Of a DNA stretch of 10,424 bases, positions 756-10,424 are shown piece after piece. Where the stretch lies: IMG/VR virus record IMGVR_UViG_2778261161_000006, positions 1 through 10,424 of that record. The stretch is one strand, 5' to 3'. The stretch is from a virus. Taxonomy: Duplodnaviria; Heunggongvirae; Uroviricota; Caudoviricetes. How positions within the stretch are numbered: the stretch's first letter is position 1; the number at the start of each line of letters is the position of its first letter. The position numbers and the translations under genes are program-made. The notes beneath the pieces are model-generated. The model saw only the letters and a program-made list of their open reading frames with translations. It was not told the DNA's origin and did not search any database.

Positions 756-1853
756 TTAGAACTGGTAAACCAGACCTACAGCAACGATGTCATCAGTGCT
801 TACACCGAGTGCTTTAGTGAAGTCATTTTTGTCAAGCAGGTTGATTTTGTAATCAACGAAAGTAGACATATTTTTGTTGAAGTAATAGGTTGCACCTACA
901 TCAACATATTTGACTAAGTCCTGATCGCCCCATACTCCAAGATCCTTACCTTTAGATTGCAGGTAAGCAACGGACGGACGCAGACCGAAATCGAACTGAT
1001 ATTGTGCAACAGCTTCGAAGTTTTGAGCTTTATTAGCAACGAAGTGATCAGCAAATACAGTCATATTCTGGGTTTCAGAATAGGTAGTGGCCAGGTAAAT
1101 GTTGTTAGCGTCATATTTCAGACCTGCGGCCCAAACTTCTGCATTTTTACCGGAAGCAAATACTTCAGGAAGAACTTTCCCTGCATTAACTTGAGTGTCG
1201 GTACGATCAGATTTCGCATAAGTTGCACCGATACCGAATCCTTCGTATTCATAGGTAGCAGAGAAACCGAAGCCATCACCGTTACCTTCGGTGTAGTTAT
1301 CGAAATCGCTACGATCGTTTTTGCCTTGGTACTGAGCAGCAAAGTTCAGACCATCAACCAGACCAAAGAAGTCGTTGTTACGATAGGTTGCAACACCAGT
1401 GGTGCGACCAGTCATGAACACATCTGTTTGGGTCCAGGTATCGCCACCGAATTCTGGCAGAACGTCAGTCCACGCACCGATGTCGTATGCTACACCGTAG
1501 TTACGGCCGTAATCGATTGAGCCGTAGTCACCGAATTTCAGGCCTGCAAATGCAAGACGGGTTTTGTCTTTGGAGGAACCTTGAGATTCAGCGCGGTTGC
1601 CTTTGAATTCATATTCCCACTGACCGAAACCAGTCAGCTGATCGTTGATTTGGGTTTCGCCTTTGAAGCCCAGACGAACATAAGTAGTATCACCATCATC
1701 TGCATCGTTAGAGGAAAAGTAGTGCTTGGCATTAACTTTCCCGTACAGATCCAGCTTGTTACTGTCTTTATTATAAATTTCAGCTGCCTGAGCAGACATC
1801 GCCATCAGTACTGATGCAGCTACAGCAGAAATTGCCACTGTTAATTTTTTCAT
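756..1853 (-). CDS. nmpC: Outer-membrane general porin, OmpC/OmpF family (NmpC / phage Lc-type), intact 365 aa
   Basis: N-terminal signal peptide [23 protein letters not shown]|AEIYNKD. Porin-like Gly/Tyr/Asp-rich beta-strand pattern and C-terminal YQF with terminal Phe, typical of outer-membrane beta-barrels. Uninterrupted ORF; no IS sequence inside. Confidence 0.92.
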
Positions 1854-3937: not shown

Positions 3938-4227
3938 GGTGTTATTCCCGATGCTTTTTGAAGTTCGCAGAATCGTATGTGTAGAAAATTAAACAAACCC
4001 TAAACAATGAGTTGAAATTTCATATTGTTAATATTTATTAATGTATGTCAGGTGCGATGAATCGTCATTGTATTCCCGGATTAACTATGTCCACAGCCCT
4101 GACGGGGAACTTCTCTGCGGGAGTGTCCGGGAATAATTAAAAACGATGCACACAGGGTTTAGCGCGTACACGTATTGCATTATGCCAACGCCCCGGTGCT
4201 GACACGGAAGAAACCGGACGTTATGAT

Positions 4228-4638
4228 TTAGCGTGGAAAGATTTGTGTAGTGTTCTGAATGCTCTCAGTAAATAGTAATGAATTATCAAAGGTATAGTAA
4301 TATCTTTTATGTTCGTGGATATTTGTAACCCATCGGAAAACTCCTGCTTTAGCAAGATTTTCCCTGTATTGCTGAAATGTGATTTCTCTTGATTTCAACC
4401 TATCAAAGGACGTTTCTATAAGATGCGTATTTCTTGAGAATTTAACATTTACAACCTTTTTAAGTCCTTTTATTAACACAGTGTTATCGTTTTCTAACAC
4501 AATGTGAATATTATCTGTGGCTAGATAGTAAATATAATGTGAGACATTGTGACGTTTTAGTTCAGAATAAAACAATTCACAGTTTAAATCTTTTCGCACT
4601 TGATCGAATATTTCTTTAAAAATGGCAACCTGAGCCAT
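4228..4638 (-). CDS. ybcV: Hypothetical protein YbcV (DUF1398-type), 136 aa; AT-rich cargo gene
   Basis: ORF open to 4761 (177 aa), but the internal ATG at 4638 is preceded by GGAAGG about 9 nt upstream and gives the 136-aa form I recall for K-12 YbcV. Strongly AT-rich compared with the flanking lambda-like DNA. Confidence 0.7.
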
Positions 4639-4923
4639 TGGTAAAACCTTCCATGTGATACGAGGGCGCGTAGTTTGCATTATCGTTTTTATCGTTTCAA
4701 TCTGGTCTGACCTCTTTGTGTTTTGTTGATGATTTATGTCAAATATTAGGAATGTTTTCAATTAATAGTATTGGTTGTGTAACAAAGTGCGGTCCTGCTG
4801 GCATTCTGGAGGGAAATACAACCGACAGATGTATGTAAGGCCAACGTGCTCAAATCTTCATACAGAAAGATTTGAAGTAATATTTTAACCGCTAGATGAA
4901 GAGCAAGCGCATGGAGCGACAAA

Positions 4924-5130
4924 ATGAATAAAGAACAATCTGCTGATGATCCCTCCGTGGATCTGATTCGTGTAAAAAATATGCTTAATAGCACCATTTC
5001 TATGAGTTACCCTGATGTTGTAATTGCATGTATAGAACATAAGGTGTCTCTGGAAGCATTCAGGGCAATTGAGGCAGCGTTGGTGAAGCACGATAATAAT
5101 ATGAAGGATTATTCCCTGGTGGTTGACTGA
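4924..5130 (+). CDS. ybcW: Small hypothetical protein YbcW, 68 aa
   Basis: ATG at 4924 preceded by GGAG (4911-4914). 68-aa ORF in the position and of the length I recall for DLP12 ybcW. Divergent from ybcV. No recognisable domain. Confidence 0.6.
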
Positions 5131-5489: not shown

Positions 5490-5688
5490 GAGGTTGCCCC
5501 GTATTCAGTGTCGCTGATTTGTATTGTCTGAAGTTGTTTTTACGTTAAGTTGATGCGGATCAATTAATACGATACCTGCGTCATAATTGATTATTTGACG
5601 TGGTTTGATGGCGTAGATGCACGTTGTGACATGTAGATGATAATTATTATCATTTTGCGGGTCCTTTCCGGCGATCCGACAGGTTACG

Positions 5689-5700
5689 GGGCGGCGACCT
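5689..5700 (+). other. cosN: lambda cohesive-end sequence GGGCGGCGACCT (terminase nicking site)
   Basis: Exact 12-nt lambda cohesive-end sequence, flanked on both sides by sequence matching the lambda genome termini as I recall them (…CCGACAGGTTACG | GGGCGGCGACCTCGCGGGTTTTCGCTATTTATGAAAATTTTCCGG…). Confidence 0.9.
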
Positions 5701-5739
5701 CGCGGGTTTTCGCTATTTATGAAAATTTTCCGGTTTAAG

Positions 5740-5856
5740 GCATTTCCGTTCTTCTTCGTCGTAACTTAATGTTTTTATTTAAAATACCCCCTGAAAAGAA
5801 AGGAAACGACAGGTGCTGAAAACGAGCTTTTGGGCCTCTGTCGTTTCCTTTCTCTG
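5740..5856 (+). promoter_or_regulatory. cosB: terminase small-subunit binding region (R3, IHF site I1, R2, R1)
   Basis: R3-like CATTTCCGTTCTTCTTCG (5741-5758). AT-rich I1-like stretch (about 5768-5786). R2 GAAAGGAAACGACAGG (5798-5813) and R1 CTGTCGTTTCCTTTC (5838-5852) form a 15-nt inverted repeat. Positioned between cosN and the Nu1 start, as in lambda. Confidence 0.75.
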
Positions 5857-5877
5857 TTTTTGGCCGTGGAATGAACA

Positions 5878-6423
5878 ATGGAAGTCAACAAAAAGCAGCT
5901 GGCTGACATTTTCGGTGCGAGTATCCGTACCATTCAGAACTGGCAGGAACAGGGAATGCCCGTTCTGCGAGGCGGTGGCAAGGGTAATGAGGTGCTTTAT
6001 GACTCTGCCGCCGTTATAAGATGGTATGCCGAAAGGGATGCTGAAATTGAGAACGAAAAGCTGCGCCGGGAAGTTGAAGAACTGCGGCAGGCCAGCGAGA
6101 CAGATCTCCAGCCAGGGACTATTGAGTACGAACGCCATCGACTTACGCGTGCGCAGGCCGACGCACAGGAGTTGAAAAATGCCAGAGACTCCGCTGAAGT
6201 GGTGGAAACCGCATTCTGTACTTTCGTGCTGTCGCGGATCGCAGGTGAAATTGCCAGTATTCTCGACGGGATCCCCCTGTCGGTGCAGCGGCGTTTTCCG
6301 GAACTGGAAAACCGACATGTTGATTTCCTGAAACGGGATATCATCAAAGCCATGAACAAAGCAGCCGCGCTGGATGAACTGATACCGGGGTTGCTGAGTG
6401 AATATATCGAACAGTCAGGTTAA
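5878..6423 (+). CDS. nohD: Terminase small subunit Nu1, 181 aa
   Basis: MEVNKKQLADIFGASIRTIQNWQEQGMPVLRGGGKGNEV… (winged helix-turn-helix N-terminus) is near-identical to lambda Nu1 as recalled. 3' end overlaps the A start, as in lambda. Confidence 0.93.
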   Translation: MEVNKKQLADIFGASIRTIQNWQEQGMPVLRGGGKGNEVLYDSAAVIRWYAERDAEIENEKLRREVEELRQASETDLQPGTIEYERHRLTRAQADAQELKNARDSAEVVETAFCTFVLSRIAGEIASILDGIPLSVQRRFPELENRHVDFLKRDIIKAMNKAAALDELIPGLLSEYIEQSG

Positions 6424-7501
6424 CAGGCTGCGGCATTTTGTCCGCGCCGGGCTTCGCTCACTGTTCAGGCCGGAGCCACAGACCGCCGTTGAATGGGCGG
6501 ATGCTAATTACTATCTCCCGAAAGAATCCGCATACCAGGAAGGGCGCTGGGAAACACTGCCCTTTCAGCGGGCCATCATGAATGCGATGGGCAGCGACTA
6601 CATCCGTGAGGTGAATGTGGTGAAGTCTGCCCGTGTCGGTTATTCCAAAATGCTGCTGGGTGTTTATGCCTACTTTATAGAGCATAAGCAGCGCAACACA
6701 CTTATCTGGTTGCCGACGGATGGTGATGCCGAGAACTTTATGAAAACCCACGTTGAGCCGACCATCCGCGATATTCCGTCGCTGCTGGCGCTGGCTCCGT
6801 GGTATGGCAAAAAGCACCGGGATAACACGCTCACTATGAAGCGTTTTTCCAATGGTCGTGGCTTCTGGTGCCTGGGCGGTAAAGCGGCAAAAAACTACCG
6901 TGAAAAGTCGGTGGATGTGGCGGGTTATGATGAACTTGCTGCCTTTGATGAGGATATTGAACAGGAAGGCTCTCCGACGTTCCTTGGCGACAAACGTATT
7001 GAAGGCTCGGTCTGGCCAAAGTCCATCCGTGGCTCCACGCCCAAAGTGAGAGGCACCTGCCAGATTGAGCGTGCAGCCAGTGAATCCCCGCATTTTATGC
7101 GTTTTCATGTTGCCTGCCCGCACTGCGGGGAGGAGCAGTATCTTAAATTTGGCGACAAAGAGACGCCGTTTGGCCTCAAATGGACGCCGGATGACCCCTC
7201 CAGCGTGTTTTATCTCTGCGAGCATAATGCCTGCGTCATCCGCCAGCAGGAGCTGGACTTTACTGATGCCCGTTATATCTGCGAAAAGACCGGGATCTGG
7301 ACCCGTGATGGCATTCTCTGGTTTTCGTCATCCGGTGTGACCGTGGAAACGGCCCGCCGCATTCTGGCAGCTGCACCACAGAGTGCACAGGCGCGCAGTG
7401 ACACTGCGCTGGATCGTCTGATGCAGGGGGCACCGGCACCGCTGGCTGCAGGTAACCCGGCATCTGATGCCGTTAACGATTTGCTGAACACACCAGTGTA
7501 A
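6398..7501 (+). pseudogene. A: Truncated terminase large subunit A (N-terminal ~313 aa) fused to ~54 codons from the 3' end of the gene preceding D (C/Nu3 region); deletion remnant
   Basis: MNISNSQVNRLRHFVRAGLRSLF… through …GILWFSSSG matches lambda gpA N-terminal half as recalled. Lambda A is about 641 aa, whereas this ORF is 367 aa. After the junction near 7336 the sequence (VTVETARRILAAAPQ…NDLLNTPV) is not gpA and runs straight into the D RBS. Confidence 0.85.
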
Positions 7502-7510
7502 GGGATGTTT

Positions 7511-7843
7511 ATGACGAGCAAAGAAACCTTTACCCATTACCAGCCGCTGGGCAACAGTGACCCGGCACATACGGCAACCGCGCCCGGCGGATTGAGTGCG
7601 AAAGCGCCTACAATGACCCCGCTGATGCTGGACACCTCCACCCGTAAGCTGGTTGTGTGGGATGGCACCACCGACGGTGCTGCCGTTGGCATTCTGGCGG
7701 TTGCTGCTGACCAGACCAGCACCACGCTGACGTTCTACAAGTCCGGCACGTTCCGTTATGAGGATGTGCTCTGGCCGGAGGCTGCCAGCGACGAGACGAA
7801 AAAGCGGACCGCGTTTGCCGGAACGGCAATCAGCATCGTTTAA
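7511..7843 (+). CDS. D: Head decoration protein D, intact, 110 aa
   Basis: [27 protein letters not shown]…TAISIV is near-identical to lambda gpD as recalled. RBS AAGGGA 5 nt upstream of ATG 7511. Confidence 0.92.
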
Positions 7844-7860
7844 CCTTACCCTTCATCACT

Positions 7861-7887
7861 AAAGGCCGCCTGTGCGGCTTTTTTTAC
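7861..7887 (+). terminator. Hairpin plus T-tract in the D-E intergenic region (intrinsic terminator/attenuator-like)
   Basis: AAAGGCCGCCTGTGCGGCTTTTTTT: GCCGC/GCGGC stem with flanking A/T pairing, followed by 7 T. Confidence 0.5.
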
Positions 7888-7898
7888 GGGATTTTTTT

Positions 7899-8405
7899 AT
7901 GTCGATGTACACAACCGCCCAGCTGCTGGCGGCAAATGAGAAGAAATTTAAGTTTGATCCGCTGTTTCTGCGTCTCTTTTTCCGTGAGAGCTATCCCTTC
8001 ACCACGGAGAAAGTCTATCTCTCACAAATTCCGGGACTGGTAAACATGGCGCTGTACGTTTCGCCGATTGTTTCCGGTGAGGTTATCCGCTCCCGTGGCG
8101 GCTCCACCTCTGAATTTACACCGGGATATGTCAAGCCGAAGCATGAGGTGAATCCGCAGATGACCCTGCGTCGCCTGCCGGATGAAGATCCACAGAATCT
8201 GGCGGACCCGGCTTACCGCCGCCGTCGCATCATCCTGCAGAACATGCGAGACGAAGAGCTGGCCATTGCTCAGGTCGAAGAGATGCAGGCCGTTTCTGCC
8301 GTGCTTAAGGGCAAATATACCATGACCGGTGAAGCCTTCGATCCGGTTGAAGTGGATAGAGGTCTTTTTAGAAGAAGGTCTCTCCGTTACTGCACCTGCT
8401 TCTGA
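7899..8405 (+). pseudogene. E: Truncated major capsid protein E (first ~153 codons of 341) followed by 15 out-of-context codons and a stop; deletion remnant
   Basis: MSMYTTAQLLAANEKKFKFDPLFLRLFFRESYPFTTEKVYLSQIPGLVNMALYV…EAFDPVEVD matches the lambda gpE N-terminus as recalled, then diverges at 8358 ([15 protein letters not shown]). Confidence 0.88.
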
Positions 8406-9840
8406 TTATATTGTTGCTGAAACGACTTATAAATTTGGCGCAACTGATCCTTATTCTGAATCAGTTGCGGTAAATTTAATTTTAGATTTTAAACAAGGTA
8501 ATGGATTTTATAGTTCGTATCCTGTTTTGAGTAAGTCAGACATTAGCGGGAATAAGATTTACGCTAATGATGAAGTTATTGTCCGTAGTCAGAACGCGTT
8601 AAGGATGATTGCAGGTGATTACGGTGTCATATGGCGAAATGATGGAGCAAATACTTACTTGCTCATGACTGATAAAGGCGACCAGTACGGTGGCTGGAAC
8701 GGTCTTCGACCATTTGCAGTAAATAACGCAACAGGTGAAGTGACGATCAATACATCACTTAATTCTCCTAAGGGGATTAAGGGAAATTCTGATACAGCTA
8801 CGAAACTTCAGACAGCAATAAAAATATCTGGTGTTTCGTTTGATGGTTCTACTGATATCACTTTAACCGCTGCGCATGTTGCTGCTTTTGCCAGAAGAGC
8901 AACGGATACGTATGCCGATGCGGATGGGGGCGTTCCCTGGAATGCCGAATCAGGCGCTTACAATGTCACTCGCTCTGGCGACAGCTATATTCTGGTTAAC
9001 TTCTATACCGGAGTCGGAAGTTGCCGGACCTTGCAGATGAAGGCGCATTACAGAAATGGTGGTCTGTTCTACCGTTCTTCAAGAGACGGTTATGGTTTTG
9101 AGGATGACTGGGCAGAAGTTTATACCTCGAAAAATCTTCCACCAGAAAGCTACCCAGTCGGCGCACCAATCCCGTGGCCATCAGATACCGTTCCGTCTGG
9201 TTATGCCCTGATGCAGGGGCAGACTTTTGACAAATCTGCCTACCCGAAACTTGCAGTCGCTTATCCGTCAGGCGTGATCCCTGATATGCGTGGCTGGACG
9301 ATTAAGGGCAAGCCCGCCAGTGGTCGTGCCGTATTGTCTCAGGAACAGGACGGCATTAAATCGCACACTCACAGCGCCAGCGCATCCAGTACGGATTTGG
9401 GTACGAAAACCACATCGTCGTTTGATTACGGCACTAAATCCACGAATAACACCGGGGCGCATACGCACAGTCTGAGCGGCTCTACAAGCTCGGCCGGAGC
9501 ACACTCGCACGTTGATGGTCGCAGGTTTAATACAAGCACTTTTAAAGACACCTATCAGTATGGTTCTACAGCTGTCGGAAGTAACTCATACCAGGTACAA
9601 GGGGCGGTTGGTCTGGGCATTGGCACGATGGCGAATACGAACTCTGCTGGCGCGCATACCCACTCACTGTCCGGCACTGCTGCAAGCGCAGGTGCACACG
9701 CACATACTGTCGGTATTGGTGCTCATACGCACTCCGTTGCGATTGGCTCACATGGACACACCATCACCGTTAACGCTGCTGGTAACGCGGAAAACACCGT
9801 CAAAAACATCGCATTTAACTATATTGTGAGGCTTGCATAA
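8359..9840 (+). pseudogene. stf: 5'-truncated side tail fibre gene (stf-like): non-lambda AT-rich central domain plus lambda Stf / T4 gp37-like C-terminal His-box domain
   Basis: Continuous frame from the junction to the stop, with no credible start of its own (the GTG at 8329 lies inside the E remnant in another frame). C-terminal ~230 aa ([71 protein letters not shown]…[11 protein letters not shown]) match lambda Stf as recalled. Confidence 0.8.
9361..9770 (+). repeat. Internal repeated His-box (HxH) motifs of the tail-fibre distal domain
   Basis: Repeated GAHTHSLSG(S/T)…AGAH(S/A)[18 protein letters not shown] and [11 protein letters not shown] segments within the stf-like ORF. Confidence 0.6.
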
Positions 9841-10424
9841 TGGCATTCAGAATGAGTGAACAAGCACGGACCATAAAAATTTATAATCTGCTGGCCGGAA
9901 CTAATGAATTTATTGGTGAAGGTGATGCATATATTCCGCCTCATACAGGTCTGCCAGCAAACAGTACCGATATTGCACCACCAGATATTCCTGCTGGCTT
10001 TGTGGCTGTTTTCAACAGTGATGAGGCATCGTGGCATCTCGTTGAAGACCATCGGGGTAAAACGGTTTATGACGTAGCGTCAGGGGACGCGTTATTTATT
10101 TCTGAACTCGGTCCGTTACCGGAAAATGTTACCTGGTTATCGCCGGAAGGGGAGTTTCAGAAGTGGAACGGCACAGCCTGGGTGAAAGATGCAGAAGCAG
10201 AAAAACTGTTCCGGATCCGGGAGGCGGAAGAAACAAAAAACAGCCTGATGCAGGTAGCCAGTGAGCATATTGCGCCACTTCAGGATGCTGTAGATCTGGA
10301 AATCGCAACGGAGGAAGAAACCTCATTGCTGGAAGCCTGGAAAAAGTATCGGGTGTTGCTGAACCGTGTTGATACATCAACTGCACCTGATATTGAGTGG
10401 CCTACGAACCCTGTCAGGGAGTAA
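9840..10424 (+). CDS. tfa: Tail fibre assembly protein Tfa, intact, 194 aa
   Basis: [54 protein letters not shown]… is near-identical to lambda Tfa as recalled. Start overlaps the stf stop (TAATG). Stop at 10422-10424. Confidence 0.9.

Follow-up and report, generated by a model that had tools for sequence, protein, structure and literature searches.

Junction 2 of the DNA analysed here, the point at which the major capsid gene E runs into the middle of the side tail-fibre gene stf, is very probably the scar left when about 15 kb were deleted from a lambda-like prophage of Escherichia coli, located at the DLP12 site and undergoing ordinary decay. The window, i.e. the whole 10,424-nucleotide stretch under study, carries, in this order, quuD, an nmpC-type porin gene (minus strand), essD, rrrD, rzpD, bor (minus strand), ybcV (minus strand), ybcW, ylcI (minus strand), cos, nohD/Nu1, a truncated terminase gene A (A'), D, a truncated E (E'), a truncated stf (stf') and tfa. 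The element sits at the E. coli DLP12 site, between argU/intD and the genes extending from ybcY to ompT. Junction 2 is a fresh instance of a well-known kind of event, and it adds one more independently decayed prophage, with base-exact breakpoints, to those that occupy this site.

The E-stf breakpoint

The features that define junction 2 and its immediate surroundings are given below, with positions in the window.

7899-8358, plus strand: E', remnant of the lambda-type major capsid gene E, made of codons 1-153 and the first base of codon 154, out of 341 codons
8357-8358, no strand: breakpoint of junction 2, with a 2-bp overlap, TA, common to both parents, placed by three-way alignment
8358-8405, plus strand: out-of-frame tail of the E' ORF, read from the translation, made of 15 codons of stf DNA in the wrong frame followed by TGA
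8359-9840, plus strand: stf', remnant of the side tail-fibre gene, made of the C-terminal 493 codons (639-1131) and the stop codon of a 1131-codon gene
8360-8365 and 8376-8381, plus strand: two copies of AGGTCT, which are native stf sequence
9840-10,424, plus strand: tfa, intact tail-fibre assembly gene, 194 aa, matching Pfam Caudo_TAP (E = 3e-45)

A first-pass annotation, made from the sequence alone, had described E as truncated and joined by a deletion to the middle of a tail-fibre gene, and had proposed an alignment to lambda E and to stf-bearing genomes as a check. The alignments to lambda and to intact prophages integrated at the same site bear out this description and place the breakpoint at 8357-8358. 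In the three-way alignment, where a slash marks the breakpoint, the E parent reads ...GTGGATA/TGGGCC and the stf parent reads ...TTTCCCGTA/GAGGTC, while the window reads GTGGATAGAGGTC across the junction, without any inserted base. Junction 2 joins E codon 153/154 to codon 638 of the 1131 codons of stf. Both flanks remain purely parental until they meet in the 2-bp overlap; the junction contains neither an IS end, nor an att core, nor a recombinase site.

A deletion was considered to be microhomology-mediated when the overlap at its breakpoint exceeded chance, i.e. reached about 5 bp or more. The overlap at junction 2 is limited to 2 bp (TA). As 16% of random joins would show an overlap of at least 2 bp by chance (probability 0.16), junction 2 is effectively homology-free. 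A local repeat search around it returned nothing relevant. No promoter-like or terminator-like site was created at the junction, the counts of such sites being equal to those obtained with shuffled sequence, and junction 2 itself is probably devoid of function.

The capsid and tail-fibre remnants

Translation of the E frame, from ATG 7899 to the TGA at 8403-8405, gives a product of 168 aa. Among its first 153 residues, 151 are identical to those of lambda gpE (two substitutions). As the first-pass annotation had stated, this match ends at ...FDPVEVD, at nucleotide 8357, the codon of the last matching D being located at 8355-8357; at the DNA level, identity to E extends one base further, to 8358, and the last E base kept is, according to the lambda alignment, the first base of codon 154. 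Over the whole segment that includes the end of C/Nu3, D and the start of E, positions 5568-6594 of lambda and 7332-8358 of the window show 97.7% identity. The 15 codons that the same annotation had placed between the end of the gpE match and a stop at 8405 are recovered by translation and are unrelated to gpE. The Pfam domain Phage_cap_E is found on residues 5-151 of the E' product and covers positions 1-143 of the 329 positions of the profile; the E portion is restricted to residues 1-153, versus about 341 aa for a full-length HK97-fold capsid protein.

The stf frame is shifted by +1 relative to the E frame at junction 2. Therefore, E' stops 15 codons after the breakpoint and no E-Stf fusion protein is made. 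In the stf' frame, the open stretch follows a TGA at 8323-8325 and, counted from its first start codon, GTG 8329, reaches 9840 (503 aa); this reading and the stf alignment agree with the earlier statement that a different frame, open from 8329, carries the tail-fibre ORF. The reading frame of the 493 stf codons is fully intact and differs from the intact stf of OkiPb01695 by one synonymous change in 1482 nt. The only Pfam domains detected on stf' are Gp34_trimer, gp37_C, Collar and Phage_fiber. Starting at codon 639 of 1131, the remnant is devoid of the N-terminal tail-attachment domain of Stf ('prophage tail fiber N-terminal domain'); it retains the C-terminal fibre/receptor-binding region, followed by the gene of the Tfa chaperone.

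The native start codon of stf is absent, and the in-frame start codons found upstream of stf' (GTG 8329 and TTG 8347) lie in E-derived DNA only. Reading of the window sequence reveals no Shine-Dalgarno-like sequence ahead of either of them. An exact look-up of the 497-aa stf' gene call matched the contig of the window alone, the other annotations being devoid of this gene call. For annotation purposes, both the 168-aa 'capsid protein' and the 497-aa 'tail fibre' calls should be marked as pseudogene fragments.

The 194-aa Tfa is very widespread in identical form, being indexed in 1,516 blocks of the collection. The exact Tfa look-up retrieved only genomes that carry a different, 1008-aa type of stf at the same site, and was of no help in placing the breakpoint. 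In many genomes, the identical Tfa adjoins full tail modules at the DLP12 site. The association of this Tfa (window 9633-10,424; regions L021-L030) with the 1008-aa stf type indicates a mosaic organization of the stf-tfa region, in which a recombination boundary lies close to the 3' end of stf. Furthermore, three independent Logan contigs (L006, L007 and L008) all end at window position 8910, which suggests that a repeat common to other stf copies of those Logan genomes begins at this position.

Full-length prophages at the DLP12 site

Complete head and tail modules are present at the same chromosomal site in M8 (region L010), OkiPb01695 (L012) and JNEC-KY175 (L001). Like the element of the window, these prophages display the same gene order, the same integration site and near-identical flanks (98.7-99.9% identity on the left side of the junction). 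They differ from it by keeping the 14,968 bp that extend from E codon 153 to stf codon 638, the 3.9 kb located between A and C, and the early region. On the left side, window 7332-8358 aligns with M8 4008-5034 (98.7% identity) and with JNEC-KY175 29185-30211 (98.9%), the latter prophage being 99.9% identical to the window up to junction 1, another deletion junction described below, and 98.9% identical from there to 8358. On the right side, M8 20001-22046 is 93.6% identical to window 8357-10,402, with 100% identity over the first 204 nt to the right of junction 2 (8357-8560), and OkiPb01695 20001-22047 is 99.7% identical to window 8357-10,403, i.e. stf' and tfa. As stf occupies positions 18089-21484 (1131 codons) in both M8 and OkiPb01695, the window enters this gene inside codon 638.

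The DNA that is missing from the window at junction 2 corresponds to positions 5035-20002 of M8 (14,968 bp). According to the gene maps of M8 and OkiPb01695, it includes E codons 154-341, FI, FII, Z, U, V, G, T, H, M, L, K, I, J, lom and stf codons 1-637. The first-pass annotation had considered that the whole tail module between E and stf is absent, and had called for a comparison with less-decayed versions of the prophage; alignment with these full-length elements, which all keep the E-to-stf DNA at the same site, establishes this point. The alignments to lambda and to the full prophages of the same site also exclude a naturally contiguous gene arrangement.

The location of the element was deduced from sibling contigs that extend beyond the window. 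On the left side, the sibling contig L002 carries an intD-type integrase gene: its positions 1-2180 are 99.45% identical to JNEC-KY175 (L001) 6436-8615, in the intD region. In JNEC-KY175, intD (6399-7562) abuts the tRNA-Arg gene argU (6307-6383); the fetched part of L002 ends just short of the tRNA. On the right side, ybcY, tfaX, a hydrolase gene, ompT, envY, ybcH and nfrA are found (contigs L002, L003 and L004; alignment with K-12).

Distribution of junction 2

The exact 168-aa E' product is read on nine contigs, all from draft assemblies or SRA data. The seven places retrieved, of which four are in NCBI assemblies and three in Logan SRA contigs, are 99.95-100% identical across junction 2. 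Positions 3-10426 of one of these contigs, NTPM01000041.1 (E. coli GCA_002463805.1), are 100% identical to the window, and the source names of its proteins read 'Escherichia coli O74'. Assemblies GCA_012909125.1, GCA_012266005.1, GCA_012807355.1 and GCA_012287065.1 carry the junction as well. With junction-spanning queries, junction 2 was found in none of the 5,426 complete E. coli genomes, and neither was junction 1. Likewise, the exact 28-nt pattern of junction 2 has no match in species-representative genomes. Among the complete genomes and the draft contigs recovered, no genome was found with only one of the two junctions. Junction 2 belongs to a rare E. coli lineage. Its occurrence in identical form in independent draft and SRA contigs implies that it is not an assembly artefact.

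The sibling contigs differ from the window by 0-3 substitutions, one of them having in addition an in-frame 3-nt deletion in stf'. This low number of SNPs and the single synonymous difference from an intact stf indicate that the deletion is recent. The intact stf' frame with its one synonymous change fits a very recent deletion; it would also fit selection on the remnant.

Other deletions in the element

Junction 2 is accompanied by other deletion junctions, and the following features document them.

71-78, no strand: further deletion junction (J0), at which a yfdR-like early gene is joined to DNA located upstream of quuD
6398-7501, plus strand: A'-C' fusion ORF generated by junction 1, 367 aa, with a GpA_ATPase domain as its only Pfam match
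7511-7843, plus strand: D, intact head decoration gene, 110 aa, identical to lambda D at 107 of 110 residues, matching Pfam HDPD

Junction 1 places codons 1-313 of the terminase gene A in frame with the final 54 codons of C/Nu3. The overlap between the parents, CCGGT(G) at 7332-7337, reaches 5-6 bp, which is clearly above the chance level (probability about 0.005). Compared with JNEC-KY175 (L001), 3,923 bp are missing, which correspond to W, B and most of C. The same element therefore pairs a large deletion almost free of homology (2 bp, junction 2) with another one that involves a short homology (5-6 bp, junction 1). D lies between the two and has been kept intact, as the first-pass annotation had recognized. 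At J0, the loss relative to JNEC-KY175 (L001) amounts to about 9.4 kb from the immunity and replication region, and the homology is imperfect (CGG[T/A]T[G/A]CC). Globally, three deletions separate a prophage of about 40.7 kb, such as that of JNEC-KY175, from an element of about 12.6 kb.

The cos site (GGGCGGCGACCT, 5689-5700) has been kept intact, as has the nmpC-type porin gene (756-1853, minus strand, 365 aa), which is split by IS5 in DLP12 of K-12.

Relationships with DLP12 of K-12 and with the AH62 prophage

DLP12 of K-12 shares with the window the chromosomal site and its flanks, a collinear series of genes (quuD-nmpC-essD-rrrD-rzpD-borD-ybcV-ybcW-ylcI-nohD, 97.9% identity), the same tfa end (98.4% identity) and the loss of the head and tail modules by internal deletion. 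However, in K-12 one larger deletion joins A (window 6705) to tfa (window 9986), spanning both junction 1 and junction 2. The resulting element (nohD-aaaD'-tfaD') has no D, E' or stf', whereas the window is intact across 6705 and 9986, i.e. at the positions of the aaaD'/tfaD' junction. The difference in breakpoints and the divergence of about 2% in the left arm indicate that DLP12 of K-12 and the element of the window are separate decay products, neither of which derives from the other. The window is thus an independent, less-decayed derivative of the DLP12 prophage family, rather than as a demonstrated precursor of the K-12 form. DLP12 of K-12 therefore represents only one of several routes of decay from a common full-length lambdoid type.

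Another arrangement was observed in AH62 (L009 16993-21952), at the bio/attB-lambda site, where E is complete and an stf truncated at its N-terminus comes directly next, ahead of tfa. Like in the window, the head genes directly precede an N-truncated stf and tfa. Unlike in the window, the prophage lies at the bio site, E is intact, and the breakpoints are located after E and near the N-terminus of stf; furthermore, identity with the window is only 89-93%. This independent deletion indicates that loss of tail genes with conservation of the 3' part of stf and of tfa is recurrent, and makes a stepwise loss plausible.

Formation of the deletion and alternative explanations

An ancestor resembling the prophages of M8, OkiPb01695 and JNEC-KY175 lost the DNA extending from E codon 154 to stf codon 638, and the ends were joined through 2 bp of shared sequence without filler DNA. 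No single sequenced prophage is at least 99.5% identical to the window on both flanks, and the parent is deduced from mosaic relatives. The joining would result from RecA-independent illegitimate recombination with essentially no homology, whether by end joining or by an error of replication or of a topoisomerase; homologous, site-specific or IS-mediated recombination is probably not the route. The deletion probably occurred in the integrated prophage, since the resulting element has lost the essential genes for the portal and the protease, the larger part of the capsid gene and every tail gene, and, at about 13 kb after all three deletions, is far below the packaging minimum. For lambda, this minimum is about 38 kb. 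Together with junction 1 and the junction of the early region, junction 2 would make the element a dead, cryptic prophage, whose surviving parts are Q, nmpC, the lysis cassette, bor, cos, Nu1, half of A, D, a capsid stub, half of a tail fibre gene and tfa.

The first-pass annotation had noticed that AGGTCT occurs twice beside the junction, at 8360-8365 and 8376-8381, and had suggested that it could be a recombination microhomology. The positions are right and the two copies are indeed 16 nt apart next to the breakpoint, but a deletion by recombination between them is hardly credible, and the three-way alignment refutes it. As each copy is native stf sequence located on the right side of the breakpoint, the pair is not a junction microhomology: the intact stf genes of M8 (L010) and OkiPb01695 (L012) contain it with identical spacing, and the E parent has no AGGTCT at its breakpoint. 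Moreover, 42% of the 60-nt windows of this sequence contain a 6-mer that recurs within 30 nt, so that such a pair is not unusual. Equally slight is the probability that junction 2 is an assembly artefact joining repeated prophage genes, or else the natural modular order of a viable phage. Such an origin could be evoked because both E and stf are multi-copy in E. coli genomes and because the junction is known only from short-read draft assemblies. However, assemblies made independently and Logan contigs built from separate sequencing runs show the identical junction, and an assembler cannot bridge a 2-bp overlap without spanning reads. As for a natural order, not one of the 117 matching phage records spans the two sides at a single place, and the element has lost essential head and tail genes. 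By comparison, it is more conceivable, though unlikely, that junction 2 is the last of several nested deletions, for instance a loss from FI into stf as in AH62, followed by a second deletion that erased the first junction. At least three separate deletions have affected this prophage, and AH62 has independently lost the DNA from just after E into the N-terminal part of stf at the lambda attB site (bio). Nevertheless, no intermediate is found among the 5,426 complete genomes or the draft contigs recovered, and the sequence of junction 2 calls for no more than one event.

A different question is whether the end of the element has been kept by selection, stf' and tfa, perhaps with D and the E' stub, serving as a donor cassette for host range or encoding a soluble receptor-binding fragment that blocks adsorption. 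If this were true, the deletion would have created or preserved a domesticated module rather than junk. The openness of stf' over 493 codons that include the domains of the receptor-binding end, the integrity of tfa, and the conservation of QuuD and of the late-operon layout, through which late transcription could reach stf', would all be consistent with such a role. In addition, functional phages have side fibres 94-97% identical to the remnant, so that it could donate host-range sequence to them by recombination, and a chimeric Stf, StfE2, formed in the cryptic prophage e14 has been reported to block adsorption of T2 (PMC12529663). Yet stf' has neither a native start codon nor a recognisable ribosome-binding site ahead of GTG 8329 or TTG 8347, and stf has lost its N-terminal half. 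Purifying selection could not yet be visible in so young a lineage (0-3 SNPs among siblings and one synonymous change from an intact gene), one sibling already has a 3-nt deletion in stf', and the position of these genes at the end of the prophage simply explains their retention. Retention by selection is therefore quite improbable, and the more specific proposal that half of stf and tfa, expressed from a Q-dependent late transcript, would act as a soluble adsorption blocker against phages that share its receptor, or as a selected host-range donor cassette appears slightly less probable still.

A satellite attachment site in the capsid remnant

The E' stub contains one more feature, which concerns a satellite rather than the prophage itself.

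8134-8143, plus strand: empty attachment site of the helper-embedded PICI 11capE type, a 10-bp repeat (AGCCGAAGCA) located within E'

Helper-embedded PICIs of the 11capE type have a 10-bp identity block in E (PMC10111431). In DSM 103246 (L031 20201-30918), an element of about 10.7 kb splits the E gene of a Qin-like prophage and is flanked by this 10-bp repeat; its cargo comprises genes encoding an integrase, AlpA, a primase, its own E-like capsid protein, a D-like decoration protein and a TIR-domain protein. The junction between E and the integrase region of the satellite is found in 173 of the 5,426 complete E. coli genomes. Two siblings of the window, L015 (7737-13104) and L019 (3018-5768), are 100% identical to it up to 8143, where an element with a P4-type integrase, AlpA and primase begins. 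The element found in the siblings and in DSM 103246 is the published helper-embedded PICI of the 11capE type; compared with these, the window has kept the target site in its E' stub and has no satellite.

A deletion mediated by the satellite was considered and rejected. The attachment site, which is the att sequence nearest to junction 2, lies 215 bp upstream of it, and the fact that E is uninterrupted from 8134-8143 to the breakpoint indicates that the satellite did not make the deletion. The landing site kept in the capsid stub, and occupied in siblings, suggests that fragments of dead prophages can still host satellites. Among the siblings, assembly GCA_012600445.1 carries the satellite.
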